A stretch of DNA of 64,000 bases from an uncultured virus (IMG/VR IMGVR_UViG_3300028840_003545) (IMGVR_UViG_3300028840_003545), one strand, 5' to 3'. Shown: positions 15,730-34,569, counted from the stretch's first letter. The notes: generated by a model from the letters alone, not told the origin. Translations and numbers: made by a program.

Positions 15730-15730
15730 T

Positions 15731-18101: not shown

Positions 18102-18415
18102 TGAAAAAGTTACTAGCAATATCACTGTTTGTTTTAGTTTCCACTAGTTGTGGCCCAAAGCAAGATCCTAATACGCCTCCACCCGATGTAAACGGTGACG
18201 TATGCACTAAAGCGTGCGCAGCATGGGAACATTTTGCCAAAACAGATGAAAGCTGTAAAAAAGAAGCAGAGCCTAATAAAGCAGGTAAAGAGTGTGATGT
18301 ATTATGTAGAGAAGTAGAATCCAGTGATTGGACTACAATGTATCCAGAATGCATCCCAAAGGCTGCTGATTGTAAGCAAGCCAAAAAGTTTAGCTCTGAA
18401 GGGTGCGGTCAATGA
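18098..18415 (+). CDS. Cys-rich lipoprotein
   Basis: MMKKLLAISLFVLVSTSC signal/lipobox; multiple further Cys. Confidence 0.7.
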   Translation: MMKKLLAISLFVLVSTSCGPKQDPNTPPPDVNGDVCTKACAAWEHFAKTDESCKKEAEPNKAGKECDVLCREVESSDWTTMYPECIPKAADCKQAKKFSSEGCGQ

Positions 18416-19680
18416 AATCACTACCAGTTTTGTCATCAGATACGCAATTAGGTATTCAGCAACAACTACGTAAACTTTACAAACGTATTGTAGAGTACAG
18501 TGGTATTATACCTGATTTACGTTTCAATAATACAAGTTACCAAGGATTGAGAAATTATCTTGATCCTATTCATCGCAGGTGTGAAAAGGTTGAATTTGGA
18601 GTAGGGTCATATACGCATAAAGTAACCGCTGTTAACGTTGCGTATTCTGGTGGAGTTTACAGTCCAACTCAAAATAGGATATATTTAGTACCATATTTAC
18701 AATCAGGTGAATCACAGTGGCATTACATTGATTGTAATACAGGTGAAGTAGTAGCTTATACACATGGGGTTACTGTTGTAGATTTTGCATATCAAGGTGG
18801 AGTTTATAGTCCAACTCAGAATAGAATATACTTTGTACCATCAGCGCAGGGTTCACAAGCTATTTGGCACTACATTGATTGTAATACAGGTGAAGTAGTA
18901 GCTTATGTAAATGGAGTTACTGCTGTAAGTTATGCATATTATGGTGGAGTTTATAGCCCAACTCAGAATAGGATATATTTTGTTCCATCTTGGCAATCAG
19001 ATCAATCACAGTGGCATTACATTGATTGTAACACAGGAGACGTTGTTACTTATACACATGGGACTATCGTAGTTAAGTATGCGTATTCTGGTGGAGTTTA
19101 TAGTCCAACCCAGAATAGGATATATTTTGTCCCATCTGATCAGGGAAATGAAGTTGAATGGCATTACATTGATTGCGATACAGGAGACGTAGACGTAGTA
19201 GCTTACAGACCTGGTATTACCACTGTTGCTTATTACACTGGTGGAGTTTACAGTCCAATTCAGAATAGGATATATTTTGTCCCATCTGATCAGGGAGATG
19301 AAGCTGAATGGCACTACATTAACTGTAATACTGGAGAAGTAGTAGCTTACACGCATGGAGCTACAGCTTTAGATTTTGCATATCAAGGTGGAGCTTATAA
19401 TCCAATTCAAAATAGGATATATTTTTCTCCAGCGGCTCAGGGTCCACAATCTATCTGGCATTATATCGACTGTAATACCGGTGAAGTAGTAGCATATGTT
19501 CATAGTATTACCGCTGTTGATTATTCATACAATGGTTGCATTTACAGTCCTATACAAAATAGAATATATTTTGTACCATATTCACAGGGTCCACAATTAG
19601 AATGGCATTTTATTCAAGATTATTCCGATGTGAAAGTTAGTAGAAATTTAATGGCCGGAACATTATTTAATAAATATTGA
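18412..19680 (+). CDS. Seven-repeat beta-propeller paralog 1
   Basis: Constant N-terminus MKSLPVLSSDTQLGIQQQ...; 7 x ~49-aa GGVYSPTQNRIYFVP-x8-WHYIDCNTGEVVAYTHG; constant C-terminus QDYSDVKVSR. Confidence 0.85.
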   Translation: MKSLPVLSSDTQLGIQQQLRKLYKRIVEYSGIIPDLRFNNTSYQGLRNYLDPIHRRCEKVEFGVGSYTHKVTAVNVAYSGGVYSPTQNRIYLVPYLQSGESQWHYIDCNTGEVVAYTHGVTVVDFAYQGGVYSPTQNRIYFVPSAQGSQAIWHYIDCNTGEVVAYVNGVTAVSYAYYGGVYSPTQNRIYFVPSWQSDQSQWHYIDCNTGDVVTYTHGTIVVKYAYSGGVYSPTQNRIYFVPSDQGNEVEWHYIDCDTGDVDVVAYRPGITTVAYYTGGVYSPIQNRIYFVPSDQGDEAEWHYINCNTGEVVAYTHGATALDFAYQGGAYNPIQNRIYFSPAAQGPQSIWHYIDCNTGEVVAYVHSITAVDYSYNGCIYSPIQNRIYFVPYSQGPQLEWHFIQDYSDVKVSRNLMAGTLFNKY

Positions 19681-19681
19681 T

Positions 19682-19999
19682 ATGATTCTTTTAAATGAAA
19701 GATGGAATTCCAAAGATGTAGACGTTCATATAGTTGAAAGTGATGAAGCTATAGTTGTATACAAGATAATAGTGTCTAAATCCAAAAGAGGTGAAGGTGT
19801 AGGCACTAAAGTAATGCAAGATATTTGCAAGTACGCTGACATTATTAGAAAGCGTATAGAACTTAGTCCATCTAAAGATTTTGGAGCTAGTTCCGTTACA
19901 AGGTTAAAGAAGTTCTACAAGCAATTTGGATTTGTAGAAAATAAAGGTCGTAATAAAGATTACGAGATATCGCATTCGATGTATCGTTTACCTAGTTAA
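19682..19999 (+). CDS. GNAT-family acetyltransferase
   Basis: IIVSKSKRGEGVGTKVM, LKKFYKQFGF. Confidence 0.85.
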   Translation: MILLNERWNSKDVDVHIVESDEAIVVYKIIVSKSKRGEGVGTKVMQDICKYADIIRKRIELSPSKDFGASSVTRLKKFYKQFGFVENKGRNKDYEISHSMYRLPS

Positions 20000-20013
20000 G
20001 TATAGAGGAACAC

Positions 20014-20481
20014 ATGCCGACTAAAATAGATGCCACAAAAATAACTGATTACATGTATATTGGAAGTGCTCCTAAGAAAGATGATCCTCTTCATTTATTA
20101 TGTAATATAGTTGTACTTACTGCAGTTGAATATCAACCTACTAGAGATTATTGGGAATATGTAGACGTAGTTAGGGCACCTATAGACGATACGATTCCTA
20201 TGGATGCATTTGATATGAAAACCGCTAAAAAGACTTCTGAATTTTTAGCAGATAAGATAAGAGAGGGTAACGTTGTTCTTAGCACATGTGCTATGGGAGT
20301 GAATAGAAGCTCTTTAATAGCTGCATTAACTATCATGAATCTACATCCAGATATAAGACCACAAGAAGTTATAGATTTAATTCGTGCTACTCGTGGTGTA
20401 GATTTAGCAGAGTTAGGTGTAAATATGTCACCTCTTTGTAATACGTCTTTTCAGAAATTCATTAAAAAGCAAAGGAATTAA
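20014..20481 (+). CDS. Dual-specificity protein phosphatase
   Basis: CX5R loop CAMGVNRS; ITDYMYIGSAP; PIDD acid loop. Confidence 0.85.
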   Translation: MPTKIDATKITDYMYIGSAPKKDDPLHLLCNIVVLTAVEYQPTRDYWEYVDVVRAPIDDTIPMDAFDMKTAKKTSEFLADKIREGNVVLSTCAMGVNRSSLIAALTIMNLHPDIRPQEVIDLIRATRGVDLAELGVNMSPLCNTSFQKFIKKQRN

Positions 20482-20485
20482 AATA

Positions 20486-20758
20486 ATGGCATCGTCACGT
20501 GGTAATCTATTACAAAGAATTAGCTTGAATGAAGAAAAATCTGAACAATTACTTACTCCAATTCGAGTAATTGATCATTCTACAAAAGATTCTAGTGCTA
20601 ATATTACTAGCGCTCAGGAATCAGATGTAGAAGATGAAACCAAGGAAGGTGTAACTGATTCAAGATGGTTTGAAATATTCACAGGTATAGCCATATCCAC
20701 TATTCCCATGGTATTAGGTGGTTATTTACTTCATGTATTGACTACTAAAAAAGAATAA
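20486..20758 (+). CDS. Small C-terminally membrane-anchored protein
   Basis: IFTGIAISTIPMVLGGYLLHVLTTKKE. Confidence 0.65.
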   Translation: MASSRGNLLQRISLNEEKSEQLLTPIRVIDHSTKDSSANITSAQESDVEDETKEGVTDSRWFEIFTGIAISTIPMVLGGYLLHVLTTKKE

Positions 20759-20764
20759 TTTGTC

Positions 20765-21253
20765 ATGTATAATAAAACGGAATTACCAAATTTTGTACAT
20801 CTTACAGATAAATATTTAGGAGAAACAGTCACACTTAAACCCAATTTACCTAGAGAACCATTTGAAGATGAATTTGGAAATCCGATAGAGGATACATCTA
20901 CTCCTAGAGTAAGTTTCGCTGATTCATTAGATTCTGCTTTGTTAGCTCTTAAAGGTTATGCACCTTATGAAGTTTATTACATATATGGGACAGACAAATT
21001 AAATGGACGCTTTGTTCCGAAATCTTTAGAAGATACTGATAATGCTGTAGATGTTATAAAGAGAAAAGGACTCTTACCCAAAGGATTTGATCAAAAAGAA
21101 GAAAATTTAATATTAGCAGTTGGTAGAGATAGATATAGAAAAGCTTTTATTGGAATAGTGCCAGATTCAGATACAACTGGCGAGATTTGGGCTAAAAAAC
21201 CAACGAAAGTAAAATATATTGGAAAATTGATTTTTAATAAGATTAAGCGATAA
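20765..21253 (+). CDS. Hypothetical protein, possible ADP-ribosyltransferase fold
   Basis: FVHLT...PRVSFADSLDSAL...YYIY...TGEIW, an H-S-E-like strand order. Confidence 0.35.
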   Translation: MYNKTELPNFVHLTDKYLGETVTLKPNLPREPFEDEFGNPIEDTSTPRVSFADSLDSALLALKGYAPYEVYYIYGTDKLNGRFVPKSLEDTDNAVDVIKRKGLLPKGFDQKEENLILAVGRDRYRKAFIGIVPDSDTTGEIWAKKPTKVKYIGKLIFNKIKR

Positions 21254-21255
21254 GA

Positions 21256-21954
21256 ATGGAGTTTATTATGCCTAATGAATTGCAGAGCCAAATTACTGAA
21301 ATATCATCACTAGATATGATTCGTTATTTTCATAAGGGATGGACTGTTTACTTTAATTCTGCCCCACCTAGCAGAGAAAGCATTTGGATTCTTTTGTCAT
21401 ATTGGGCTATTGTAACTGATTGGGGTAGTAATATTTATAATTACAATGTAGGTAATATATCAAGTGAAGATGAAGATGGATACGATTACATACACAGACC
21501 AGAATGTAAGTTACTTAAAATTGATGAAGCTAAAAAATTGAAAGACAAGGATCCAGGTCTTGTTAGTATCACCTATAACGGAAGCTCTAAACATGATGCT
21601 ATAGTATGGTTTTTACCTAGTCATAAGTTTAGTAGATTTAGAGCATATCAAAGTATAAGTGAAGGCATTGTAGATTATTTCTGTTATCTTGCACGCTCTT
21701 TACCTGACGAGACGTGGAAGCTGGTGCGGGAGGCGGACGCGAGCGCTCTAGCGGCGGATTTGGAGCGTCTAGGGTGGGTTTCTGAGCCCTTGATCACTTC
21801 TAAGGGGTGCGGTTTTGCTGACGCATTGAGTAAATATGTAACTGCATACAAAACTATAGATTTTGACTACGATAGTTTAGTAGCTTTTACTGAAGATGAA
21901 AAAGAACAAATCAAGAATTTGATTGGTTTGAGTTTAATTGGAGAAGTGAAATAA
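21256..21954 (+). CDS. GH73/FlgJ-like glucosaminidase homologue, possibly inactive
   Basis: WAIVTDWG...NYNVGNI...FRAYQSISEGIVDY...LERLGW; expected catalytic Glu absent. Confidence 0.45.
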   Translation: MEFIMPNELQSQITEISSLDMIRYFHKGWTVYFNSAPPSRESIWILLSYWAIVTDWGSNIYNYNVGNISSEDEDGYDYIHRPECKLLKIDEAKKLKDKDPGLVSITYNGSSKHDAIVWFLPSHKFSRFRAYQSISEGIVDYFCYLARSLPDETWKLVREADASALAADLERLGWVSEPLITSKGCGFADALSKYVTAYKTIDFDYDSLVAFTEDEKEQIKNLIGLSLIGEVK

Positions 21955-23213
21955 TGAAATCGTTACCAGTTCTGTCATCAAATACACAATTGGGTATTCA
22001 GCAACAGCTACGTAAGCTTTACAAGAAGATTGTAGACTATAGTGGAGTTATACCTGATTTACGCTTCAACAATACTAGTTATCAAGGATTGAGAAATTAT
22101 CTTGATCCTATTCATCGTAAATGTGAGAAAGTAGAGTTTGGGGTAGGATCATATACACATGGTGTCACAGCTGTTATATATGGATATCATGGAAATGTTT
22201 ATAACCCAACTCAAAATAGAATATATTTTGTACCCTATCTTCAAGGCGATAATGTTAATTGGCATTACATAGATTGTAATACTGGTGAAGTTGTAGCTTA
22301 TACCCATGGAGTATCTGTTGAAGATGGTGGATATAATGGAGGCGTGTATTCTCCTACTCAAAATAGAATTTATTTCGTTCCACATGCTCAAGGTCCAGAA
22401 CTACAATGGCACTACATTGATTGTAATACTGGTGAAGTTGTAGCTTATACTCATGGAGTATCTGTTAAACTTAGTGGTTATAATGGAGGTGTATATTCTC
22501 CTACTCAAAATAGAATTTATTTCGTTCCATATTCTCAAGCACCTGAATCTCAATGGCATTACATTGATTGTAATACAGGTGATGTAGTAGCTTATACGCA
22601 TGGGGTTACAGCAGTTAATTACGCTTACGTAGGAGGTGTTTACAGTCTAACACAAAATAGAATTTATTTAGTTCCATTTACTCAATCTGATCAGCAATAT
22701 TGGCATTACATTGATTGCGATACAGGGGAGGTTGTAGCTTATTCTCATGTCGTAGTTTCTGGCACTGGATATGCTGGAGGTGTATATTCTCCTATTCAAA
22801 ATAGAATTTACTTTGTGCCACAAAATTCAGAAGCACAATGGCATTATATTGATTGTAATACAGGTGAAGTAGGTAGTTATACACATGGAGCTTCAGTAGT
22901 AGGAATTTATGCATACGCTGGAGGCGCTTACAGTCCTGCACAAAATAGAATTTATTTTGTTCCTTATGGTCAATCTAATCAAGAATATTGGCATTATATC
23001 GATTGTAATACAGGTGAAGTTATTCCTTATAAGAACAGGGTAACAGTAGAAGCGTATGGATATTTTGGAAGTGTTTATAGCTCAACTGAAAATAGAATTT
23101 ATTTTACACCATATTCGCAAGGACCAGAGTCTGAATGGCATTACATTCAAGATTATTCAGATGTTAAAGTAAGTAGAAGTTTAATGTCTGGAGCATTATT
23201 CAATAAACTGTGA
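21954..23213 (+). CDS. Seven-repeat beta-propeller paralog 2
   Basis: Same architecture as paralog 1. Confidence 0.85.
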   Translation: MKSLPVLSSNTQLGIQQQLRKLYKKIVDYSGVIPDLRFNNTSYQGLRNYLDPIHRKCEKVEFGVGSYTHGVTAVIYGYHGNVYNPTQNRIYFVPYLQGDNVNWHYIDCNTGEVVAYTHGVSVEDGGYNGGVYSPTQNRIYFVPHAQGPELQWHYIDCNTGEVVAYTHGVSVKLSGYNGGVYSPTQNRIYFVPYSQAPESQWHYIDCNTGDVVAYTHGVTAVNYAYVGGVYSLTQNRIYLVPFTQSDQQYWHYIDCDTGEVVAYSHVVVSGTGYAGGVYSPIQNRIYFVPQNSEAQWHYIDCNTGEVGSYTHGASVVGIYAYAGGAYSPAQNRIYFVPYGQSNQEYWHYIDCNTGEVIPYKNRVTVEAYGYFGSVYSSTENRIYFTPYSQGPESEWHYIQDYSDVKVSRSLMSGALFNKL

Positions 23214-23222
23214 GGAATAAGA

Positions 23223-24503
23223 ATGAAATCGTTACCAGTTTTATCATCAGATACACAATTAGGTATTCAGCAACAACTACGTAAACTTTACAAACGCATT
23301 GTAGAGTACAGCGGTATTATACCTGACGTGCGTTTCAACAACACAAATTATCAAGGATTGAGAAATTATCTTGATCCTATTCATCGCAGGTGTGAAAAGG
23401 TTGGATTTGGAGTTGGTAGATATAATGGTGTGATAACAACTTGGGGATATTATGGTTCTGTTTATTCTCCTACTCAAAGTAGAGTTTATTTCGTACCTTC
23501 TGGTGAAGGAAATCAAGTGCAATGGCATTATGTAGATTGTGAAACTGGCAATTTAGTAGCATATACTCATGGAGCTACGGCAGTTCAGTATGCATATCAA
23601 GGTGGAGTTTATTCTCCAACACAAAACAGAATTTATTTCGTACCTGCTGTGCAAGGACCACAAGCTAATTGGCATTATGTAAATTGCAATACTGGTGAGA
23701 TAGTGGCGTACGCTCATGGCTCAAGTGCTACTAGTTACGCATATGCAGGAGGCGCATACAGTCCGACGCAAAATAGAATTTATTTTGCACCATATTATGA
23801 GTCTGATCAAGCTGTATGGCATTATATAGATTGCGATACAGGTGATGTGGTAGAATATACAAACAATAATGCTACATCAGTTCAATATGCTTATAATGGA
23901 GCAGTATATAGTCCAACACAAAATAGAATCTATCTGGTACCTTATAAGCAAGCCTTAGAGTCTATTTGGCATTACATTGATTGCGACACTGGTGAAGTAG
24001 TAGCTTATGAGCATGGACATTCAGATCTTTACATTAACGCTTATGCCGGAGGGGTTTATTCTCCAACGCAAAATAGAATATATTTTGTTTCTTTTAATCA
24101 GGGAAATCCTTTCAGTGAACCAACTACAAATTGGCATTATGTAGATTGCGATACAGGTGAAATTGTAGCTTACGAAGGTGTTATAACAGTTAATAGTTAC
24201 ACGTATGTAGGAGGTGTTTACAATCCAGTTCTTAATAAATGTTTCCTAATACCATATGGCGGAACCGCAGCATCTCAGTGGCATTATATAGATTGTACGG
24301 ATGGGTCTGTAGTAGCATACGAACATGGTCAGGTTTTAGCTGATTATGGATATAATGGTGGAACATATGATCCGATTTCAAATATTATATACATGAGTCC
24401 TGCTGTACAAGCAACTGCTAATTGGAGTAAGATTCAAGATTATTCAGATGTTAAAGTAAGTCGTAGTTTAATGTCTGGAGCATTGTTTAATGTTAATGTA
24501 TAA
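23223..24503 (+). CDS. Seven-repeat beta-propeller paralog 3
   Basis: Same architecture as paralog 1. Confidence 0.85.
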   Translation: MKSLPVLSSDTQLGIQQQLRKLYKRIVEYSGIIPDVRFNNTNYQGLRNYLDPIHRRCEKVGFGVGRYNGVITTWGYYGSVYSPTQSRVYFVPSGEGNQVQWHYVDCETGNLVAYTHGATAVQYAYQGGVYSPTQNRIYFVPAVQGPQANWHYVNCNTGEIVAYAHGSSATSYAYAGGAYSPTQNRIYFAPYYESDQAVWHYIDCDTGDVVEYTNNNATSVQYAYNGAVYSPTQNRIYLVPYKQALESIWHYIDCDTGEVVAYEHGHSDLYINAYAGGVYSPTQNRIYFVSFNQGNPFSEPTTNWHYVDCDTGEIVAYEGVITVNSYTYVGGVYNPVLNKCFLIPYGGTAASQWHYIDCTDGSVVAYEHGQVLADYGYNGGTYDPISNIIYMSPAVQATANWSKIQDYSDVKVSRSLMSGALFNVNV

Positions 24504-24518
24504 TGGAGAAGTGAAATA

Positions 24519-25796
24519 ATGAAATCGTTACCAGTTCTGTCATCAAATACACAATTGGGTATTCAGCAACAGCTACGTAAGCTTTACAAACGCATTGTAG
24601 AGTACAGCGGTATCATACCTGATTTGCGTTTTAATGATACAAGTTATCAAGGATTGAGAAATTATCTTGATCCTATTCATCGTAAAACGCAGAAATGTGA
24701 ATTTGGGGTAGGGCGATACAATACAGATTTAGCGCCTCTTATTGCTAATGCATACATTGGAGCAGTGTACGCTCCTACTTTGAATCGTATATATTTGGTT
24801 CCTTTTGAAATATCAAATCAAGCTAGTTGGCATTATATAGATTGCAATACTGGCAAAGTAGTAGCATATGCTCACAATCTTGGTGTAGACACTCCTGTAA
24901 ATCAAGCATATACTTGGGGAGGTTATGATCCTTACAATGATATTTTATGGTTTACACCAGCAAATCAAGGAACTCAAAGTAAATGGCATTATGTAGATGG
25001 TAAAACTGGTAAAGTAGTTGCATATGAACATGGTACAGGTGTTACAGTTGATCATCCTTACTATTCTGCAATATATTCTCCTAAGCAAAATAGAATGTAT
25101 CTTGTACCTCTTTTACAATTTGATCAAGGAAATTATCATTACATAGATTGTGAAACTAAAACAGTTGTAGCCTATACTCCAACAAATCCGTTACCGTCTA
25201 TTTCTGTTGGAGGTAGTTATGATCCAATCAATGATAGGATTTATTTTGCACCGTGGCCTTTTCCACCAACGTCGAATGATGGTTTTTCTTATATAAATTG
25301 TAAAGATGGATCTGTAGAAACTTTAGTATCAGATGAAATTGTTCAAGCAGCGTACGCAGGAGCAATTTTTAGTCCTACCTTAAGGAGAATATATTTTATT
25401 CCTTACAGGCAAACCGTGAATGATTTATGGCATTATATTGATTGTGATACAAATGAGGTAGTATTATATAATCATGGTGTTACTATTGTTGATTATGGAT
25501 ACAATGGAGGGGCATATTCAGCTGCGAGTAATAGAATTTATTTTTCTCCTTTTCTTCAGTACAATGAAACGTATTGGCATTATATTGATTGCAATACTGG
25601 AGAAGTTGCAGCTTATATTTCCGAGAATAAATTTCAATGCACTGGTGCTGTTTATGTTCCTAATTTATCTAGAGTGTATCTGACTCCAAGTTTAAGTGGA
25701 ACAGCTTCAAGTGATTGGATTTTTATTCAGGAATATACTGATGTTGAAGTTAGTAGAAGTTTAAGTGGTGGTTGTCTTTACAATAAGACACCTTAA
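24519..25796 (+). CDS. Seven-repeat beta-propeller paralog 4 (most divergent repeats)
   Basis: Constant N-terminus, 7 degenerate repeats. Confidence 0.85.
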   Translation: MKSLPVLSSNTQLGIQQQLRKLYKRIVEYSGIIPDLRFNDTSYQGLRNYLDPIHRKTQKCEFGVGRYNTDLAPLIANAYIGAVYAPTLNRIYLVPFEISNQASWHYIDCNTGKVVAYAHNLGVDTPVNQAYTWGGYDPYNDILWFTPANQGTQSKWHYVDGKTGKVVAYEHGTGVTVDHPYYSAIYSPKQNRMYLVPLLQFDQGNYHYIDCETKTVVAYTPTNPLPSISVGGSYDPINDRIYFAPWPFPPTSNDGFSYINCKDGSVETLVSDEIVQAAYAGAIFSPTLRRIYFIPYRQTVNDLWHYIDCDTNEVVLYNHGVTIVDYGYNGGAYSAASNRIYFSPFLQYNETYWHYIDCNTGEVAAYISENKFQCTGAVYVPNLSRVYLTPSLSGTASSDWIFIQEYTDVEVSRSLSGGCLYNKTP

Positions 25797-25838
25797 TAAT
25801 TCTAGATTTAGACTAATGTGTAATTAGGAGAGATTAAA

Positions 25839-26519
25839 ATGATTTGGGATACAGCTAAAGAGTACGGCTCTAAGGTATATAGTTGGTATGGTGAAAATAA
25901 TGATGCTATGGATGAAGTTGATAGAAAGGCTCAAGAGCTTTTCGATCAAGATATGAAAGCAGCTAGACAATTACCAGTAATTGGTGCATATTGGATGTTT
26001 GTAGAAGGTGATTATTGGTATGTTACTCATGATGATTTATCTATATCAGAAATGGCTTCAACCTATCTTCCTGTTGATAGAAATGTAGAGCCAGTATGGA
26101 ATAAAAGATTTCCAGAACTTTGGAATTATCAGCCTACTGAATTTCAATTTATGGCTACAAATTATGGATTAAAAAACTATCCTAATAAGGTAATAAATAA
26201 TGGCATATATTGGGGTCCACTCCCAAATGGTACCCCAGTTAGAATGCCTACTGAGTCTGTAGATATAGCAATGTCACATGGTGTAGTTATACCAAATCTT
26301 GATCCTGCTCCTGAACCGGATCTAGATGAAAATAAACCAATTGCTGTTCCTAATATATTTCCATCTGCTTTGGAAAGATCCCAAATATATTCTGGCAAAA
26401 TATCAGGTTTAATTAAAGGAAGTGAAGAACGAAAGTTTAATTATGTAACTTGGGGACTTGGCGGTGTAGCAATTTTAGGTGCAATTGGAACAGGTTTATA
26501 TTTTTGGAGGATAAAATGA
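25839..26519 (+). CDS. Membrane-anchored protein, possible degenerate LysM-like region
   Basis: WYVTHDDLSISEMASTY...ELWNYQ...GTPVRMP; C-terminal WGLGGVAILGAIGTGLYFWRIK. Confidence 0.6.
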   Translation: MIWDTAKEYGSKVYSWYGENNDAMDEVDRKAQELFDQDMKAARQLPVIGAYWMFVEGDYWYVTHDDLSISEMASTYLPVDRNVEPVWNKRFPELWNYQPTEFQFMATNYGLKNYPNKVINNGIYWGPLPNGTPVRMPTESVDIAMSHGVVIPNLDPAPEPDLDENKPIAVPNIFPSALERSQIYSGKISGLIKGSEERKFNYVTWGLGGVAILGAIGTGLYFWRIK

Positions 26520-27466: not shown

Positions 27467-27687
27467 TGATTAAAGCAAAATTCAAATGTGATCATGTAGA
27501 TTTAAAAGATGAAAATGAGTACATCACTCTAAATGTTGTCACAGACGATGGAGGAGAATGTAATAGACAATGGTCTAAATTTACTCCATCTGGTAGTCTT
27601 GATCTTGTTATATCTAATGAGAAAGCTCATGGAAAATTTGAAGTAGGAAAATGTTATTACGTGTACATTGAAGAGACTGAACAATGA
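27466..27687 (+). CDS. Small hypothetical phage protein
   Basis: AKFKC...WSKFTPSGSLDLVISN...GKCYYV. Confidence 0.65.
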   Translation: MIKAKFKCDHVDLKDENEYITLNVVTDDGGECNRQWSKFTPSGSLDLVISNEKAHGKFEVGKCYYVYIEETEQ

Positions 27688-28580
27688 AACAACTAAAAGC
27701 TATTTACAATAAACCGAATCCGCCATGGGCTGATAAAGCTGTTGAGGCTAATAGAACACGTATAGTTCGAGCTTTTGGTAAGAAAAGTTTGCCGGAGTTA
27801 GCGACTCCAACAGATAAAACTAAATATGTTGAATATGGTTGTGGACATTATGGTTGCGTGTATCCAACGCAGGAAATGGGTAAAGTATTAAAAATAACAT
27901 CTGATCCAACTGAAGTAGCTTTAGTTAAGTACATATTAAAGAATGGTTCAGCCAAAGAATATTTAAGTGGATTAGTTAGGTATTACAAAATTTTGAATCT
28001 TAATACTAGATATAGGAAAAGAGATGTTTATGCAATATTAAGAGAAGAGGCTTTCGATGTTGGAGCAATGACTGAAGATAAATTGTATCGAGAACAATCA
28101 AGAAAAATATCAGCATTTCTATGGTTTGCTAGACATGTTAGAGATATGTATGTCAAACATGGTAGCAAACCTGGATTCAATAATAAAGTAGACTTATCAT
28201 ATACAAGATGGAGAGATACTGTAGAATATAATAACAATAATTTAATTATTGGAGGATCAGAGTTTAGATATATTGATATGTACAGTCTTCGTAACAGTTG
28301 GAAAATACCAAGTTGGATAAAATCATCGGATAGAGCAGGATTTGCGTTAGTTGGAGCGTTAGCTGCTGCAGAGGATATAGCGCAAACTCCAGAGATAACA
28401 GACATTGGAGAGACTTTAATGTGGTTTCTTTGTAAAGGAAAGTTATTAGCTGATGTACATTTGAATAATATTGGAAAAGTTATCAGAGAAGAAAATTACA
28501 GAGAACCAATGTTTGTAATTACTGATCCTGGCCATGCTGTAGACGTAGTATCTCTTTATTCATACATTTGTGAGGAATAA
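27684..28580 (+). CDS. Protein kinase-like fold protein
   Basis: GCGHYGCVY (Gly loop), VLKIT (Lys), TE helix, DVHLNNIG (catalytic loop), ITDPG (DFG equivalent). Confidence 0.8.
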   Translation: MKQLKAIYNKPNPPWADKAVEANRTRIVRAFGKKSLPELATPTDKTKYVEYGCGHYGCVYPTQEMGKVLKITSDPTEVALVKYILKNGSAKEYLSGLVRYYKILNLNTRYRKRDVYAILREEAFDVGAMTEDKLYREQSRKISAFLWFARHVRDMYVKHGSKPGFNNKVDLSYTRWRDTVEYNNNNLIIGGSEFRYIDMYSLRNSWKIPSWIKSSDRAGFALVGALAAAEDIAQTPEITDIGETLMWFLCKGKLLADVHLNNIGKVIREENYREPMFVITDPGHAVDVVSLYSYICEE

Positions 28581-28582
28581 AA

Positions 28583-29863
28583 ATGAAATCGCTACCAGTT
28601 CTGTCATCAAATACGCAATTAGGTATTCAACAACAACTACGTAAACTTTACAAACGCATTGTAGAGTACAGTGGTATCATACCTGATTTGCGTTTCAACA
28701 ACACAAGTTATCAAGGATTGAGAAATTATCTCGATCCTATTCATCGCAGATGTGAGAAAGTAGAGTTTGGTGTAGGATCATACACACATGGTGCTACAGC
28801 TCTAACAGGAGCATATAGAGGAGGAGTATATAGTCCAATTCAAAATAGAATTTATATGGTTCCAGCAATTCAAGCGCCACAGCCGAATTGGCATTACTTA
28901 GACTGTAATACTGTTGAAGTTGTAGCTTATGCAAATGGTTTAGGTGTTCCCGCTCATATATGGGCATACACAGGAGGATGTTACAGTCCAACCCAGAATC
29001 GTATATATTTTGCTCCAAATGAGCAAGCTTTAGAGACTAATTGGCATTATATTGATTGTAATACAGGTGAAGTTGTAGCTTACGCGCATGGTTCAACTAC
29101 ACTTGTCAATTTTGCTTATCATGGATGTATATATAGTCCAACTCAAAATCGTATATATTTTATACCTAATGCCCAATCTGCTGAAACTAAGTGGCATTAC
29201 ATTGATTGTGATACAGGAGATGTAGTTGAATATGAACATGGACTAACAGTTCCATGGTTTGCTTATAATAGTGGAGTTTACAGTCCTACACAAAATCGTA
29301 TATACATGGTTCCAGATGGTCAAGCACCCTTGCCTATCTGGCATTACATTGATTGTGATACAGGTGATGTAGTAGAATATAATAACAATCTAACAGTTCC
29401 TGCTGATACATATGAAGGAGGTGTATACAGTCCGATTCAAAATAGAATATATTTTGTACCATACACCGGGGCGAATAAAGACACGTGGCATTACATTGAT
29501 TGTAATACAGGGGATGTTGTTATTTATAATGTAACGTCATCTTTACCTGAACAATTTGCATATGTTGGTGGTGTTTATAATCCTACGCAAAATAGAATAT
29601 ATTTAGTTCCATTTGGTCAATCTGATGAATCTACGTGGCATTACATTGATTGTAATACTGGAGAAGTTGTAGCTTATGAACATGGGGTTACGATAGTTGG
29701 GAATAATGCTTATTATGGGGGGATTTACAGTTCATCTCAAAATAGAATATATTTTATTCCAGCTTTTGAAGCTGACAAACCTGTTTGGCATTACATTCAA
29801 GATTATTCAGATGTTAAAGTAAGTAGAAGTTTAATGTCTGGACCAATGTTTAATAAACTGTGA
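28583..29863 (+). CDS. Seven-repeat beta-propeller paralog 5
   Basis: Same architecture as paralog 1. Confidence 0.85.
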   Translation: MKSLPVLSSNTQLGIQQQLRKLYKRIVEYSGIIPDLRFNNTSYQGLRNYLDPIHRRCEKVEFGVGSYTHGATALTGAYRGGVYSPIQNRIYMVPAIQAPQPNWHYLDCNTVEVVAYANGLGVPAHIWAYTGGCYSPTQNRIYFAPNEQALETNWHYIDCNTGEVVAYAHGSTTLVNFAYHGCIYSPTQNRIYFIPNAQSAETKWHYIDCDTGDVVEYEHGLTVPWFAYNSGVYSPTQNRIYMVPDGQAPLPIWHYIDCDTGDVVEYNNNLTVPADTYEGGVYSPIQNRIYFVPYTGANKDTWHYIDCNTGDVVIYNVTSSLPEQFAYVGGVYNPTQNRIYLVPFGQSDESTWHYIDCNTGEVVAYEHGVTIVGNNAYYGGIYSSSQNRIYFIPAFEADKPVWHYIQDYSDVKVSRSLMSGPMFNKL

Positions 29864-29872
29864 GGAATAAAA

Positions 29873-31135
29873 ATGAAATCGTTACCAGTTCTGTCATCAG
29901 ATACACAATTAGGTATTCAGCAACAACTACGTAAACTTTACAAACGCATTGTAGAGTATAGTGGTATCATACCTGATTTGCGTTTCAACAACACAAGTTA
30001 TCAAGGATTGAGAAATTATCTCGATCCTATTCATCGTAAATGTGAAAAAGTAGAGTTTGGGGTAGGGTCATATACTCACGGAGCTACTGTTTCCGAGTAT
30101 GCTTACATTGGTAGTGTTTACAGTCCAACTCAAAATAGGGTTTATTTTGTCCCATTTGCTCAAGGAAATCAAGCACAGTGGCATTATATTGACTGTAATA
30201 CAGGTGAAGTAGTAGCTTATACGCATGGGGCTACTGCTTCAAATGGAGCTTATTCTGGAGGTGTTTATAGTCCTACACAAAATAGGATATATTTTGTACC
30301 AGCTAATGAATCAAATGAATTACAATGGCATTATATTGATTGTAATACAGGTGAAGTAGTAGCTTATACGCATGGGGCTACAGCAGTTGACTATGCTTAT
30401 TCAGGAGGAGTTTATAGTCCTACACAAAATAGGATATATTTTGTACCAGATGGTCAAGCACCACAGGTTAATTGGCATTATATTGATTGTGATACCGGCG
30501 ATGTAGTAGCTTATATTAATGGTGCTTCTGTTAGTGGGGCGCTTGCTTATGTTGGAGGTGTTTATAGTCCTACACAAAATAGGATATATTTTGTTCCTGT
30601 TGGTCAGGCAGATGAGCCACAATGGCATTATATCGATTGTGATACAGGTGATGTAGTAGCTTACACTCATGGAGCAACAGCAGTTAATTATGCTTATGCA
30701 GGAGGTGCTTATAGTCCAGTACAAAATAGAATTTATTTCGCACCATCTCTTCAGTCTGTAGAGCCTCAATGGCATTACATTGATTGTGATACAGGAGATG
30801 TAGTAGCTTACACACATGGAGCTACAACACTTGAATATTACAGTTGTGTTTATAATCCTGTACAAAATAGGATATATCTTGTACCTTACGCTGCTGCTAC
30901 ACAATCTACATGGCATTATATTGATTGCAATACTGGTAATGTAGTAGCCTATGAACATGGAGTAACAGTAGGTACTAGCGCTTATATTGGAGGATTTTAC
31001 GTTCCTTCAATTAATAGAATATACTTAACCCCATATCGTCAAGCTGACGATCCTGTTTGGCATTACATTCAAGATTATTCAGATGTTGAAGTAAGTAGAA
31101 GTTTAATGTCTGGAGCATTATTCAATAAACTGTGA
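29873..31135 (+). CDS. Seven-repeat beta-propeller paralog 6
   Basis: Same architecture as paralog 1. Confidence 0.85.
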   Translation: MKSLPVLSSDTQLGIQQQLRKLYKRIVEYSGIIPDLRFNNTSYQGLRNYLDPIHRKCEKVEFGVGSYTHGATVSEYAYIGSVYSPTQNRVYFVPFAQGNQAQWHYIDCNTGEVVAYTHGATASNGAYSGGVYSPTQNRIYFVPANESNELQWHYIDCNTGEVVAYTHGATAVDYAYSGGVYSPTQNRIYFVPDGQAPQVNWHYIDCDTGDVVAYINGASVSGALAYVGGVYSPTQNRIYFVPVGQADEPQWHYIDCDTGDVVAYTHGATAVNYAYAGGAYSPVQNRIYFAPSLQSVEPQWHYIDCDTGDVVAYTHGATTLEYYSCVYNPVQNRIYLVPYAAATQSTWHYIDCNTGNVVAYEHGVTVGTSAYIGGFYVPSINRIYLTPYRQADDPVWHYIQDYSDVEVSRSLMSGALFNKL

Positions 31136-31142
31136 GGAATAA

Positions 31143-32411
31143 ATGAAATCGTTACCAGTTCTGTCATCAGATACACAATTAGGTATTCAACAACAACTAC
31201 GTAAACTTTATAAACGCATTGTAGAGTATAGTGGTATCATACCTGATTTGCGTTTCAACAACACAAGTTATCAAGGATTGAGAAATTATCTTGATCCTAT
31301 TCATCGTAAATGTGAAAAGGTTGAATTTGGAGTAGGGTCATATACTCACGGAGTTGGTGGTATTTCAAGCAATGCCTTTTCTGGAGGTGTGTACAGTCCG
31401 ACACAAAATAGGATATATTTAGTTCCAAATGGAGAAGCGGACGAAGCTAATTGGCATTATATTGATTGTAATACAGGTGAAGTTATAACTTATGCTCATG
31501 GATCTTCTGCTGTAAATTTTGGTTATAGTGGTGGTGTTTATTCACCTATCCAAAATAGAATTTATTTTATTCCAGCGGCTCAGTCTGATCAAGTAAATTG
31601 GCATTATGTAGATTGTAACACTGGAGATATCGTTGAATATGCTCATGGTTCTGGAGCCATTGGTTCATACGCTGGAGGAGTATATAGTCCAAGACAGAAT
31701 AGAATTTATATGGCACCTAATGGCGCTGCAGATGAAGCTAATTGGCATTACATTGATTGTGATACAGGTAATGTAGTTTCATACGCTCACGGAGCTGGAA
31801 CAGTTTTAAACGTTGCGTATGTTAGTGCTGTGTACAGTCCAACTCAAAATAGGATATATCTTGTTCCATTCGCACAATCAGATCAATCTTATTGGCATTA
31901 CATTGATTGTGATACAGGAGATGTGGTTGCATATACGCCAAATGTTACCTGTGTAAGTGGAGCGTATTCCGGTGGAGTTTATTCTCCAATTCAAAATAGA
32001 ATATATTTTGTTCCTAGATTTCAAGCTGATCAATCTCATTGGCATTATATTGATTGTAATACAGGTGATGTGGTTGCATATACGCCAAATGTTACTGTAC
32101 AGTCTGCTGGATACGTTAGCGGATCTTACAATCCTACTCAAGATAGAATTTATTTTACTCCATTTGCGCAGGCATCGCAACCACAGTGGCATTATATAGA
32201 TTGTAACACAGGAAATGTAATTGAGTACACAAATAATGTTACCTGTTTAGCTAATGGATATTTAGGATCTGTATATAGTCCGACACAGAATAAAATATAT
32301 TTATGTCCAGCAATACAATCAGATCAATCTGTTTGGCATTACATTCAAGATTATTCAGATGTTAAAGTAAGTAGAAGTTTAATGTCTGGAGCATTATTCA
32401 ATAAACTGTGA
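31143..32411 (+). CDS. Seven-repeat beta-propeller paralog 7
   Basis: Same architecture as paralog 1. Confidence 0.85.
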   Translation: MKSLPVLSSDTQLGIQQQLRKLYKRIVEYSGIIPDLRFNNTSYQGLRNYLDPIHRKCEKVEFGVGSYTHGVGGISSNAFSGGVYSPTQNRIYLVPNGEADEANWHYIDCNTGEVITYAHGSSAVNFGYSGGVYSPIQNRIYFIPAAQSDQVNWHYVDCNTGDIVEYAHGSGAIGSYAGGVYSPRQNRIYMAPNGAADEANWHYIDCDTGNVVSYAHGAGTVLNVAYVSAVYSPTQNRIYLVPFAQSDQSYWHYIDCDTGDVVAYTPNVTCVSGAYSGGVYSPIQNRIYFVPRFQADQSHWHYIDCNTGDVVAYTPNVTVQSAGYVSGSYNPTQDRIYFTPFAQASQPQWHYIDCNTGNVIEYTNNVTCLANGYLGSVYSPTQNKIYLCPAIQSDQSVWHYIQDYSDVKVSRSLMSGALFNKL

Positions 32412-32423
32412 TTGGTGATTAAG

Positions 32424-33254
32424 ATGACAATTAGTAAAAGACAAAGACGTTCTGCTAAATCAGCAACTGCTAACTATCCTGGTCTTTCAGGTGCTGTAAT
32501 TCCTAAAAGACGCGTCTCCAAAGCTGCATCTGTCGCCTCGACACCTACCCCTACAGAGGCAAATGTTGGGGTTGGAGCCGTGGATTCTGGAAGTTTAAGA
32601 CCAGCGCAGGATGACATAGAACCACCTAAGCCAGTTGGAGTAGATGGTGTCAAAGAAGAAGAAATTAAAACAGAGTCAGTTGGAGTAGATGGTGCTGAAA
32701 AAGCTAAAGAGATAGTAGAAAACGTTGTGGAGGATGTAGGAGTAGGAAGAGTAAATATTGATGATATGCAATTACCATCTCCCCCCGCTTATGCGGCACC
32801 CTCTGAAGATATGGGAGTAGGTGATACTTTTAGTGATATTGCACAAACTCATAGATTAATGATAAAGCGTTTTGATGCTCCACGTAGAGTTTATCATACT
32901 CCAACATGGAATAGTATGGTTGCTTTTGTAACTCATAAACAACCAGGAGCAGGAACATTTTATAATTCTCACACAACTTATGCAGAATGGTATACTGGTT
33001 TTTCCATAGCTGCTATGTATGATGATTTAGTTCTTTATTGGGGGTTGATTGTTAGAGGAGCACTGCCTTCTATTTGGCCTCAAGGTCCACTTCAAGCAAT
33101 AAATGAAGCTAAAGCTGCTGGAGTACACATTAGTAATAATGGTGTTTTGAATCCTGGTAAAGATTTTTACCAGTGGATGATTAACGGTAAGGTTAGAACC
33201 TGGATAGATGGATATCTCAAATCTACATATCCAGGTGGAATTGATATAGACTAA
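32424..33254 (+). CDS. Hypothetical protein with VGV-containing low-complexity N-half
   Basis: Repeated [VM]GV[GD] motifs, basic N-terminus. Confidence 0.65.
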   Translation: MTISKRQRRSAKSATANYPGLSGAVIPKRRVSKAASVASTPTPTEANVGVGAVDSGSLRPAQDDIEPPKPVGVDGVKEEEIKTESVGVDGAEKAKEIVENVVEDVGVGRVNIDDMQLPSPPAYAAPSEDMGVGDTFSDIAQTHRLMIKRFDAPRRVYHTPTWNSMVAFVTHKQPGAGTFYNSHTTYAEWYTGFSIAAMYDDLVLYWGLIVRGALPSIWPQGPLQAINEAKAAGVHISNNGVLNPGKDFYQWMINGKVRTWIDGYLKSTYPGGIDID

Positions 33255-33269
33255 TTAAATGAGGATAAA

Positions 33270-34541
33270 ATGAAATCGCTACCAGTTTTGTCATCAAATA
33301 CGCAATTAGGTATTCAACAACAGCTACGTAAACTTTATAAACGCATTGTAGAGTACAGTGGTATTATACCTGATTTGCGTTTTAACAATACTAGTTATCA
33401 AGGATTGAGAAATTATCTTGATCCTATACATCGCAAATGTGAGAAAGTAGAGTTTGGAGTAGGATCATATACACATGGTGCAATATTAAATGGTTCTTAT
33501 GAAGGAGCTGCTTATTCACCAACATTAAATAGAATATATTGGGCTCCGTATGGACAATCTGATCAAATTGATTGGCATTATCTAGATTGTAACACAGGTG
33601 AAGTTGTAGCTTACACACATGGCACTGGGGCAGTTAGTGATGCATACAGTGGAGCAGTTTATGATCCATTTAATAATAGAATATATTTTACTCCAAATGG
33701 ACAATCTGATCAAACTGATTGGCATTATTTAGATTGTAATACAGGTGAAGTTGTAGCTTACACACATGGCACTGGAATACTAACTAAATATGCATACGCT
33801 GGAGGTTGTTATCATCCAATATTAAATAGAATTTATTTTGCACCTACTGCTCAAGCTACAGAAGCGATTTGGCATTACATAGATTGTAATGATAGTTCTG
33901 TTGTTGCTTACAATAATAATATTTCTGATGTAGTAGCTTTTGCATATAATTCCATTGTATACAGTCCAACTCAAAATAGAATGTATTTATTACCATTGAT
34001 GCAAAGTTCTCAGGATAACTGGCATTATATTAATGAAAATGGAGATATTGTTTCATACGTAAATGGCACTGGTATAACAATTCCACTTGCTTATATAAAT
34101 GGTTCTTATAGTCCAGTAGATAATAGAATATATTTATCTCCATACAATCAAAGTGATCAATTGTATTGGCATTATATAGATTGCAATGATGGATCAGTAA
34201 AACCTTACACATCTGGATTAAATACTGTTTTATCAGCTTATGTTGGAGCGGTATATAATCCGGCATTAAATAGGATATATTTTATACCATCTGCTCAAGG
34301 TCGAGAATCAATTTGGCATTATTTTGATTGTAGTATAGATGAAGTTGTCGGATACAATCCTGGTTTAACTACAGTTTCACTTAATTCTTATAATGGAGGC
34401 TTTTATGATGTAGTAAATAATAGAATATGTATGACACCAGGAGGAGAATATAATGATCCAGAATGGCATTACATTCAGGATTACTCAGATATAAAAATTA
34501 GTAGGAATTTAGTAGCTGGATCGTTGTTTAATAGATACTAA
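33270..34541 (+). CDS. Seven-repeat beta-propeller paralog 8
   Basis: Same architecture as paralog 1; last gene of the + strand operon. Confidence 0.85.
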   Translation: MKSLPVLSSNTQLGIQQQLRKLYKRIVEYSGIIPDLRFNNTSYQGLRNYLDPIHRKCEKVEFGVGSYTHGAILNGSYEGAAYSPTLNRIYWAPYGQSDQIDWHYLDCNTGEVVAYTHGTGAVSDAYSGAVYDPFNNRIYFTPNGQSDQTDWHYLDCNTGEVVAYTHGTGILTKYAYAGGCYHPILNRIYFAPTAQATEAIWHYIDCNDSSVVAYNNNISDVVAFAYNSIVYSPTQNRMYLLPLMQSSQDNWHYINENGDIVSYVNGTGITIPLAYINGSYSPVDNRIYLSPYNQSDQLYWHYIDCNDGSVKPYTSGLNTVLSAYVGAVYNPALNRIYFIPSAQGRESIWHYFDCSIDEVVGYNPGLTTVSLNSYNGGFYDVVNNRICMTPGGEYNDPEWHYIQDYSDIKISRNLVAGSLFNRY

Positions 34542-34569
34542 GCAACAAGAAAGCTTGTCTATTATTGGT

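Follow-up and report, generated by a model that had tools for sequence, protein, structure and literature searches.

The Eight-Gene Array

The window, meaning the whole 64,000-nucleotide stretch of uncultured virus DNA analysed here (IMGVR_UViG_3300028840_003545), contains eight plus-strand open reading frames encoding paralogous propeller proteins of 419–426 aa (g1–g8, Table 1), which begin where a preliminary description of this DNA had placed them. Every gene carries seven W-H-Y anchors situated 46–55 aa apart, 56 blades in total, and the ~49-aa repeats previously proposed are thus confirmed. The eight proteins are 44–72% identical over their full length, so their resemblance goes beyond chance. 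Broadly, they have a four-part layout: a ~30-aa amphipathic heptad helix, a ~35-aa neck (motif IP.LR...L.NYL.PI...KV.FGVGSY), a seven-bladed YncE/Vgb-like beta-propeller and a ~20-aa tail. The heptad character of the first ~30 residues is read from the sequence, with hydrophobic I15, L19, L22, I26 and Y29 spaced 4-3-4-3.

The 65-aa N-terminus is 86–100% identical at the amino acid level, as had been described, but its DNA identity is merely 83–96%, so that the earlier wording “near-identical in DNA” was overstated. Nor is this region as a whole lineage-specific, as its second half corresponds to the neck, conserved family-wide. The conserved C-terminal stretch of ~21 aa is of equal length in six of the eight genes, while g3 and g4 end differently. 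An additional GTG is present upstream of the g1 start, at 18403.

The neighbours of the array have a non-structural appearance (GNAT, dual-specificity-phosphatase-like, kinase-like and peptidase genes, together with tail-anchored membrane proteins), and no capsid, portal, tail or baseplate gene was recognised within the window. No long fibre shaft was found among the window proteins, a counterpoint to a virion-tip reading of the propellers. Sigma-70 promoter and terminator scans of 15100–35000 remained at or below shuffle expectation, and the Rfam matches were two tRNAs only.

Table 1. Position of the propeller genes and of other features discussed in the text.
Feature	Position (nt)	Strand	Remarks
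Resolvase-family gene	6129-6854		No link to array found
P0121, tailspike-like	7601..10672	+	1023 aa; beta-helix and TNF/C1q-like C-terminal domain
g1 propeller paralog	18412..19680	+	422 aa counted from ATG
g2 propeller paralog	21954..23213	+	419 aa; copy used for AF2 model
g2 N-terminal helix	21978-22040	+	aa 9-29
g2 neck helix	22080-22121	+	aa 43-56
g2 closing strand	22137-22157	+	aa 62-68
g3 propeller paralog	23223..24503	+	426 aa; C-terminal end divergent
g4 propeller paralog	24519..25796	+	425 aa; most divergent; orthologue at distant phage locus L030
g5 propeller paralog	28583..29863	+	426 aa
g6 propeller paralog	29873..31135	+	420 aa
g7 propeller paralog	31143..32411	+	422 aa
g8 propeller paralog	33270..34541	+	423 aa

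Fold of the Propeller Proteins

The AF2 model of g2 is a confident seven-bladed propeller (pLDDT 94.3, pTM 0.91), to which DSSP assigns 1 + 6x4 + 3 strands, that is, 28 strands in 7 blades. The proposed closure by an N-terminal strand is borne out by the model and DSSP as a 3+1 arrangement involving the FGVGSY strand. Among solved structures, the top match is Vgb lyase (2z2o; Z 27.4, rmsd 2.7 over 295 aa, 12–13% identity), ~3 Z units above generic WD40 entries; YncE (Z 24, rmsd 3.0–3.1) and Lp49 are also among the best, and a YVTN S-layer propeller is a further match, the seven-bladed fold being like that of YncE or 1L0Q. The enzymatic nature of Vgb lyase, the top match, is a counterpoint to a binding-tip reading. 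The best viral fold matches are large fibre-like proteins, headed (TMq 0.72) by one with collagen repeats from a Hokovirus, and a 1138-aa Cylindrospermopsis virus protein, whose gene adjoins a virion structural gene, is matched as well.

Sequence searches against the PDB returned chance-level matches only (best E 0.007, CI repressor), and no fitting family was found in Pfam or NCBIfam: at E values up to 1, NCBIfam listed no YVTN model, and the Pfam scan contained no propeller family. PepSY (PF03413) reached a summed 45.6 bits, above its cut-off, yet none of its stretches passes individually and the region is a modelled propeller blade; this match is treated as a repeat artefact. A homotrimer prediction for three copies of residues 1-61 scored 0.02, with the partner fold itself uncertain, and so speaks neither for nor against a trimer.

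Sites of Variation and History of the Genes

Entropy over the eight paralogs is 0.12 bits in the N-terminus, 0.66 in the scaffold, 1.63 in the loop after THG and 1.69 in that after FVP. The two hypervariable segments described earlier are recovered in the 56-blade alignment, where the columns of at least 2.5 bits comprise both loops and one strand position. These segments are the D-A and B-C loops of the blades, which in standard propeller topology lie on the same “top” face, so that both variable loops would be expected on one face of the protein. The comparison of substitutions gives pN/pS values of 0.84–0.85 in loops versus 0.30 in the scaffold; as dN/dS in the loops does not reach 1 and synonymous sites approach saturation, these values do not establish positive selection. 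No nearly invariant column occurs inside the variable loops in a 64-sequence alignment. Regarding their composition, the reported richness in Ser and Asn stands (V/A/S/T/N/G/D are the rich residues), but Tyr, Phe and Gln are not enriched (5.2, 2.5 and 3.7% of hypervariable columns, respectively), and a Gln excess in loop 2 is due to one conserved Q column.

The array differs between relatives. In the related strain L023, flanking proteins are 85–95% identical and same-position cassettes merely 55–69%; furthermore, one propeller cassette carries an in-frame stop, and g8 is missing, with an unrelated 158-aa ORF in its place. The g4 protein is 63% identical to its orthologue at the distant locus L030, its loops being 40% identical to that orthologue versus 15–20% to in-genome paralogs, and its N-terminus 87–93% identical to in-genome paralogs versus 83% to the orthologue. 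With a dS of about 1.3, the bodies of the paralogs are old. The N-terminal pS of 0.37 compares with 0.63 in the scaffold, the N-terminus being lower in 28/28 pairs. By these comparisons, the N-terminal helix evolves in concert within the genome. This reduced synonymous divergence, together with 3' tracts common to g2, g5, g6 and g7 (significant in 6/28 pairs, global p <= 0.005), supports the homologous exchange proposed for the constant ends. On the other hand, the shuffling of single blades between genes did not hold up: no internal fragment is significant, and blades resemble those of their own gene (16 observed versus 5.1 expected, p 0.0003). Paralog joints in two public runs, with sides of 22–39 nt, are probably repeats or belong to other organisms, and were therefore excluded as evidence of recombination.

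Ongoing programmed diversification is not supported: two assemblies, from contigs of two samples, agree at 100% of 21,257 nt of the array, and g4 has a conserved orthologue in a distant phage. The two public runs (X1 and X2, Logan contigs) contain the main strain exactly, with a lower-depth second variant in the intervening genes; their contig sets are nearly the same, so the runs may not be independent. The preliminary description had assumed a system with neither reverse transcriptase nor invertase. The former holds within the window, as no RT domain was found among its 28 ORFs of at least 200 aa (23 scanned, the remaining five being propeller paralogs); the latter needs qualification because of the resolvase-family gene. 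A diversity-generating retroelement was rejected, there being no RT within the window and no adenine-biased changes (mismatches between the most similar blade pairs involve every type of base). Resolvase-driven inversion, or a shufflon, was likewise rejected, as the eight genes are co-oriented and lack convincing flanking inverted repeats; those in 1-18500 are short, at most 29 nt, and imperfectly complementary (70–94%).

The Propeller Family in Other Phages

The family comprises 690 clusters at 50% identity in metagenomes, and the propeller ends <=40 aa from the C-terminus in 71 of 92 long representatives. Among 41 homologues of at least 481 aa, the N-terminal extension matches a tail, tail-fibre or virion-structural PHROG in 11, and other functional PHROG classes in none. 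In the 606-aa protein of L010, residues 1-117 match phrog_1640 (E 3.5e-42), the N-terminus of a tail or tail-fibre protein, and fused forms also occur with a tail collar fibre (L011) and a tail fibre (L007). The L013 gene, another fused form, comes directly after baseplate wedge genes, and in L002 and L021 tail-fibre genes are followed directly by three tandem propeller copies. In proteins whose attachment domain is of tail-fibre or tailspike kind, the propeller thus takes the distal (C-terminal) position, and its fusion to tail-fibre parts in homologues lends support to the receptor-binding role suggested previously. The phage GenBank collection gave one distant match, in a Cylindrospermopsis virus. 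Genome contigs searched with exact peptide words of A1 and g6 yielded no relative, a low-sensitivity search that is no evidence for absence from cellular genomes. No account of this propeller family, or of tandem propeller receptor-binding protein (RBP) arrays, was found in the literature searched.

A Shared N-Terminal Helix

Residues 7-37 of the tailspike-like P0121 carry the helix motif common to the eight paralogs. The best PDB fold matches of P0121 are phage tailspikes (6e1r, E 4.7e-5), CBA120 TSP2 also being matched; in the ESM Atlas it falls with C1q-like, pectate-lyase-like and tail-fibre clusters, with all scores below 0.9, to be taken as leads only. The initial match between P0121 and the propeller N-terminus, at E 1e-3, was a weak one, and the HMM gave an antisense frame the same score; the kinship of both helices thus stands only because of its co-variation by genome. 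Over the first 40 aa, P0121 scores 62 against g6 and 25 against P0029, a propeller of a 122-kb phage, while its homologue P0234, on a 122,384-base contig, scores 59 against P0029 and 40 against g2. Both within-genome pairs (P0121/g6 and P0234/P0029) have shuffle p <= 0.0005. The helix thus seems to co-vary by genome between propellers and tailspike-like protein, as judged from two genomes, for one of which same-contig origin is an inference. Furthermore, L030 encodes a 601-aa protein with the same N-terminal motif (E 1.9e-4), as well as a pectate-lyase-like pair. The ~30-aa helix appears to act as a genome-specific adaptor common to unrelated heads.

Proposed Role and Alternative Explanations

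As the propeller forms the far tip of tail fibres in related phages, the eight paralogs are most likely alternative host-binding proteins, and we think it rather probable, on sequence and model evidence, that they are alternative receptor-binding (adhesin) tips which a large, uncultured tailed phage displays on its virion. This reading draws directly on the fold, the sites of variation, the fused tail-fibre forms, the co-variation of the helix by genome and the differences between arrays. By analogy with known fibres, the 30-aa helix would attach each propeller protein to the virion by plugging it into a common tail docking site or helical bundle, which P0121 might use as well. The top face, formed in the expected geometry by 14 variable D-A and B-C loops, would bind a host surface structure that differs by paralog. 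With eight propellers and P0121, each having its own target, up to nine binding specificities per phage are proposed. The gene set would have arisen via old duplications, its loops diverging rapidly on a conserved scaffold, with the docking helix and 3' ends in concerted evolution, probably through gene conversion, and blades homogenised within each gene; from one related phage to another, cassettes come and go, are replaced or become inactive.

It is unlikely that the propellers are non-virion binders instead, intracellular or released, which target variable host proteins (e.g., in host take-over or as decoys versus defence systems) and whose helix serves another common partner. Large viruses are known to expand repeat-protein families for manipulating their hosts, and the genes among which the array is dispersed are of kinase-like, phosphatase-like, acetyltransferase and peptidase type, none being recognisably structural; nonetheless, the same domain is the C-terminal tail-fibre tip in many phages, arrays follow tail-fibre genes, the helix is common to the tailspike-like protein, and the first 31 residues show by sequence no long hydrophobic stretch of a Sec-type signal. 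Virion-associated or free enzymes seem quite unlikely too; the propellers would then be catalytic, comparable to those of Vgb or the sialidases, and would degrade different host envelope polymers as lyases, lactonases or depolymerase-like enzymes. Such enzymes would fit the virginiamycin B lyase match, the depolymerase-type tailspike-like proteins that accompany the family (P0121 and the L030 pair) and the frequent association of the seven-bladed fold of gp131 with enzymes, noted in PMC13250141. Against them, identity to Vgb is low, no enzyme family was matched in Pfam, NCBIfam or PDB sequence searches, the conserved residues occupy the same scaffold positions in every blade, and the top-face loops contain no blade-specific invariant polar residue, their almost free variation fitting binding better than a fixed active site.

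An active diversity-generating system along the lines of the preliminary description, in which constant ends and repeated scaffolds drive frequent shuffling of cassettes or blades within the population, is very improbable. The reduced N-terminal synonymous divergence, the 3' tracts, the intragenic blade similarity and the non-orthologous cassettes at syntenic positions of a relative would agree with it, but the bodies are old, blades show neither significant exchanged fragments nor positional shuffling between genes, the array is identical in two samples, and the g4 orthologue keeps its loops partly conserved in a distant phage; RT domain, adenine-specific spectrum and convincing inverted repeats were not found in the window either.

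A more far-reaching form of the receptor-binding reading, held only tentatively and doubtful as a whole, is a “plug-in” host-range system of nine RBPs or more, whose heads (eight propellers, one beta-helix tailspike) are of at least two unrelated types, with an interchangeable ~30-aa helix and mosaic virions. All heads would either be rivals for one set of docking sites or occupy it together, gene conversion would keep the helix uniform within each genome, and virions would be combinatorial mosaics, bet-hedging across hosts. New specificities might be gained by grafting the helix onto a head, and the propeller would represent a family of receptor-binding domains, so far unnamed but widespread, in which 14 loops make up a variable, antibody-like face.

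Significance and Comparison With Known Systems

For uncultured environmental phages, sequence alone says little about host range. The locus would define an unnamed receptor-binding-domain family, its 690 clusters having neither Pfam nor NCBIfam model, and pinpoints the likely specificity site to two loops per blade. If confirmed, it would offer a compact, easily modelled scaffold for host-range broadening and switching by paralog expansion, and the combination of helix, neck and propeller could serve as a marker to annotate RBPs in metagenomic phage genomes.

In multi-RBP phages of the CBA120 (TSP1-4), phi92 and K64-1 type, each virion bears several RBPs that combine a conserved module for attachment with a distal domain that varies. 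Most of those RBPs are depolymerases of the beta-helix kind, and their anchor domains are large, whereas here the heads are propellers, in eight copies of one family, on a short-helix anchor. The fold resembles YncE, YVTN-type and Vgb-lyase propellers (Z 24–27, rmsd 2.7–3.1 over about 295–303 residues), at 12–14% identity, with no named propeller HMM match and in a phage-fibre context, not in a known DNA-binding or lyase role.

Extracellular contractile injection systems possess fibres of beta-propeller lectin and collagen tail in which the propeller is the binding module (PMC12923769), and collagen repeats also occur in the top viral fold match of the present propellers; system and shaft are different, and the portion of that source consulted describes no paralog arrays. 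In the baseplate RBP Gp45 of Staphylococcus phage phi11, a triple-helical stem at the N-terminus precedes the propeller domain; Gp45 is described as an experimentally shown trimer with five blades and extra tower domains, encoded by a single gene (PMC4901313). The order of helix and propeller is alike, with seven blades and eight genes here.

By analogy, the nearest counterpart of the array would be the phiKZ gp131 paralogs. The accounts consulted describe gp131-gp135 as paralogous fibre proteins of a large phage whose similar N-terminal regions are part of a helical bundle where the fibre is attached (PMC13250141), gp131 ending distally in a seven-bladed propeller (C-terminal domain PDB 4GBF), a proposed host binder (PMC13250141; PMC4901313). 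The likeness is one of described architecture: 4GBF is absent among the 50 fold matches listed, no sequence relationship was found, and phiKZ-like phage proteins are matched in fold only at TMq 0.42–0.47. The eight proteins likewise end in a modelled seven-bladed propeller. Their conserved N-terminus co-varies by genome and is a putative docking region. Unlike in phiKZ, where these accounts describe a propeller for gp131 only and the C-termini of its paralogs differ, all eight proteins here belong to the same propeller family, share an N-terminus of just ~30 aa and carry variable loops.

Organization of the Array

The eight-gene propeller feature is real: eight co-oriented ORFs of 419–426 aa (g1–g8, in window order) show whole-protein identities of 44–72%. 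W-H-Y anchors occur seven times per protein, spaced 46–55 aa, bearing out the preliminary description's eight paralogs of seven repeats, or 56 blades. Its assertion that the N-termini are near-identical in DNA did not hold, as over 65 aa the proteins are 86–100% but the DNA just 83–96% identical, while the conserved C-terminus it reported (~21 aa, of the same length) was found in six of the eight genes, those of g3 and g4 being different.

Enzyme-like and membrane genes are interspersed in the array, and no capsid, portal or baseplate genes were recognised in the 64-kb window. Two of these neighbours recur in the related strain (locus L020): the larger membrane-anchored paralog at 67% identity, and the 298-aa protein, lacking any Pfam match at E ≤0.1, at 85%. 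The 552-aa protein looks like an ArdC-like anti-restriction protein. The 865-aa gene is convergent with that of the tailspike-like protein P0121. The opposite strand beyond the array is an early or metabolic block. Long antisense ORFs within propeller genes are probably not genes but a side effect of the repeated codon pattern.

Features of the window (the propeller genes are given by ORF start)
Feature	Position	Strand	Remarks
552-aa protein	2036-3694	-	ArdC-N (anti-restriction), DUF6782 (metallopeptidase) and DUF5661 matches, all weak
HTH_3 regulator	4371-4778	+	
Serine recombinase	6129-6854	-	Resolvase N-terminal domain, E 5.8e-32
P0121	7601-10672		1023 aa; N-terminal helix similar to that of the propellers
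865-aa protein	10692-13289	-	sole match weak: GHKL ATPase (HATPase_c_3), residues 124-184
Papain-like peptidase	15731-16531	+	weak
CHAP-like	17137-17799	+	weak
Small Cys-rich protein	18098-18415	+	lipoprotein-like signal
g1	18412	+	
Antisense ORF	19006-19356	-	
GNAT acetyltransferase	19682-19999	+	
Dual-specificity-phosphatase-like	20014-20481	+	
g2	21954	+	
g3	23223	+	
g4	24519	+	
Two paralogs	25839-26519, 26450-27466	+	very similar C-terminal transmembrane anchor, ..WG.GGVA.LGAIGTG.YFW..K
298-aa protein	27684-28580	+	GxGxxG..V...K motif, resembles protein-kinase ATP site
g5	28583	+	
g6	29873	+	
Antisense ORF	30401-30958	-	
g7	31143	+	
Antisense ORF	31878-32192	-	
g8	33270	+	
Early or metabolic block	34570-64000	-	includes all rows below
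N6/N4 DNA methylase	39978-40742	-	
MazG	42468-43034	-	
ThyX	49098-49733	-	
dCTP deaminase	50728-51267	-	
tRNA-Lys(ttt)	54475-54549		
Sigma-70-like factor	59157-59615	-	
tRNA-Leu(taa)	61786-61871		

Predicted Fold and Variable Loops

The AlphaFold2 model of g2, built from a 64-sequence alignment (pLDDT 94.3, pTM 0.91), contains helices at 9–29 and 43–56, followed by one strand (62–68), six four-stranded sets and a last set of three, 28 strands in total. It supports the proposed seven-bladed propeller, in which the N-terminal FGVGSY strand is predicted to complete the last blade. The strand order within the repeat is A (AY.GGVY), B (RIYFVP), C (WHYIDC) and D (EVVAY), and the variable segments are thus the D-A and B-C loops. 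Both of these loops lie on the top face in propellers, where the topology would therefore place the variable segments. The closest solved fold is Vgb lyase (Z 27.4, rmsd 2.7, 295 aa), followed by Lp49 and YncE (Z about 24), with identities of 12–14% for the three. Pfam, NCBIfam and PDB sequence searches returned no fitting family and no enzyme family; a confident match to a known enzyme family with conserved catalytic residues would have told against the preliminary description's reading. A Pfam match to PepSY was rejected, its score being a sum over repeats with 0 single stretches passing.

Column entropy across the eight paralogs is 0.12 bits in the N-terminus, 0.66 in the blade scaffold and 1.63 and 1.69 in the loops, in agreement with two hypervariable segments per blade on a conserved scaffold. 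Across the 56-blade alignment, Y15, G17, Y20, P22, N25-R26-I27-Y28, P31, W47-H48-Y49 and V60 are nearly fixed, and columns of at least 2.5 bits fall in the loops preceding AY.GG and following FVP. Small and polar residues, namely V, A, S, T, N, G and D, abound in the hypervariable columns, so that of the suggested richness in Tyr, Phe, Ser, Asn and Gln the Ser and Asn parts stand and the others do not. In the loop-versus-scaffold comparison that had been proposed, pN/pS among g1–g8 is 0.84–0.85 in the loops vs. 0.30 in the scaffold, which would fit relaxed or diversifying selection.

The Propeller Family in Other Phages

A word-based search found 270 propeller relatives, none with a useful name, and an exhaustive profile search gave 690 clusters at E ≤1e-3 (280 at 1e-30). 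Among the best 150 of these 690, 92 have a length of at least 480 aa, and in 71 of the 92 at most 40 aa separate the end of the propeller from the C-terminus. The N-terminal extensions in the loci examined are parts of tail fibres: residues 1–117 of the 606-aa L010 protein resemble phrog_1640 (E 3.5e-42) and other tail-fibre/tailspike N-termini, and the extension matches a tail collar fibre in L011 and a tail fibre in L007. In L013 the propeller gene lies directly 3' of baseplate hub and wedge genes. Outside the propeller, 11 of 41 homologues of at least 481 aa have tail, tail-fibre or virion-structural PHROG matches, and 0/41 match another functional class. By fold, the closest viral proteins are one with collagen repeats and one of 1138 aa whose gene adjoins a virion structural gene.

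Other tandem arrays, each with a constant N-terminus of its own, comprise three copies following tail-fibre genes (L002/L021), three copies in L009, and at least two each in L026, L027/L032 and L035; the window's eight copies form the largest array among the loci examined. L009/L033 is a 161,742-base contig labelled as a giant-virus MAG, with three propeller paralogs of ~500 aa, one inverted, and phage-like neighbours (HNH endonuclease, PHROG matches). Giant forms of the family, in which a protein may have as many as five or six propeller stretches, include ORFs of 2297 and 3334 aa in L024 (4253-21141), P0123 (3608 aa) and P0128 (4113 aa), and look like very long multi-headed fibres.

The Constant N-Terminus and the Tailspike-Like Protein

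The first ~30 aa of the propeller proteins form a helix with hydrophobics at 15, 19, 22, 26 and 29 (spacing 4-3-4-3). The second half of the N-terminus (IP.LR...L.NYL.PI...KV.FGVGSY) is kept directly before the propeller in long fibre forms, and is thus a neck that belongs to the propeller module. P0121, which has homologues in related phages, shares 12 of 31 helix residues at the same position, a match weak by itself; an antisense frame gives an equal HMM score. The helix co-varies by genome, since P0121 and its homologue P0234, from a 122-kb phage, are each closer to their own-genome propeller in first-40-aa local scores: P0121 scores 62 with g6 and 25 with P0029, the propeller of the 122-kb phage, and P0234 scores 59 with P0029 and 40 with g2 (within-genome pairs, shuffle p ≤0.0005). 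P0234 and P0029 are each assigned to a 122,384-base contig, and we infer their same-contig origin from that equal size. The P0121 model comprises a beta-helix (residues 120–425, pLDDT about 90) and, at the C-terminus, a jelly-roll; phage tailspikes (6e1r, CBA120 TSP2) and TNF/C1q-like domains head its PDB matches.

The distant phage L030 encodes a 601-aa protein with the same helix motif. Adjoining its propeller gene, tandem pectate-lyase/pectinesterase-like paralogs (12831-14252 and 14270-15724) with their own near-identical N-terminus (MGCLPRTPLVHEDQRLTHFA.ALQA.INK) are a second instance of constant N-termini joined to variable bodies in a tandem arrangement.

Origin of the Diversity

The preliminary description envisaged shuffling of cassettes or blades by homologous recombination, with no reverse transcriptase or invertase. 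A runs test over the 28 gene pairs found significant shared tracts at the 3' end only, among g2, g5, g6 and g7 (6/28 pairs, global p ≤0.005), and none inside the blades. With blade 7 excluded, nearest neighbours lay in the same gene 16 times (expected 5.1, p 0.0003), at the same position 5 times (expected 7.1) and elsewhere 27 times; this own-gene excess points to homogenisation of blades within genes, and there was no sign of exchange between genes. Homologous exchange is supported at the constant ends, and shuffling of single blades between genes is not. pS is 0.63 in the blades, near saturation, vs. 0.37 in the N-terminus, which is lower in 28/28 pairs. The g4 orthologue in L030 is 63% identical to g4, vs. 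43–53% for the other paralogs; the g4 loops are 40% identical to those of the orthologue and 15–20% to those of in-genome paralogs, whereas the g4 N-terminus is closer to in-genome paralogs (87–93%) than to the orthologue (83%). Concerted evolution of the docking end, combined with stable and specialised heads, would be expected to produce such a pattern.

Diversification by reverse transcriptase was rejected in the window, as both an RT domain, among ORFs of at least 200 aa (n = 28; Pfam on 23, the other five being propeller paralogs), and an adenine-biased mismatch spectrum between compared blades are absent. The expected lack of an invertase fared less well, given the resolvase-family serine recombinase, which could be a phage integrase or invertase; it lies near the HTH_3 regulator. 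Convincing inverted or target repeats were not found for this gene, and inversion was rejected because the cassettes are all co-oriented and the inverted repeats unconvincing.

The window is 100% identical to contigs of two samples over 21,257 nt. In the related strain (L020/L023), whose flanking proteins reach 85% and 95% identity, the g5- and g7-position propellers match g5 and g7 at just 62% and 55%, no other copy being closer, and an unrelated 158-aa ORF replaces g8; the array thus differs between relatives, whereas invariance would have told against the preliminary description. An extra 143-aa ORF lies upstream of the g5-position gene (L020 1851-3116), in which an in-frame stop falls on the Ser codon of a VYSPTQNR blade motif; the gene is a pseudogene, or else the assembly contains an error.

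Comparison With Known Systems

Most likely, g1–g8 are multi-copy receptor-binding tips of an unnamed propeller family sharing a plug-in helix, which would act as the docking element; virion location, docking and ligands we infer. The closest known system is that of the phiKZ gp131 paralogs, whose shared N-termini resemble that of gp131 and sit in a helical bundle where the fibres attach; gp131 itself ends in a distal seven-bladed propeller, the proposed host binder (PMC13250141). Further analogues are phi11 Gp45, with a helical stem and a propeller of five blades instead of the seven of g1–g8 (PMC4901313), and contractile injection systems with their propeller-lectin fibres (PMC12923769).
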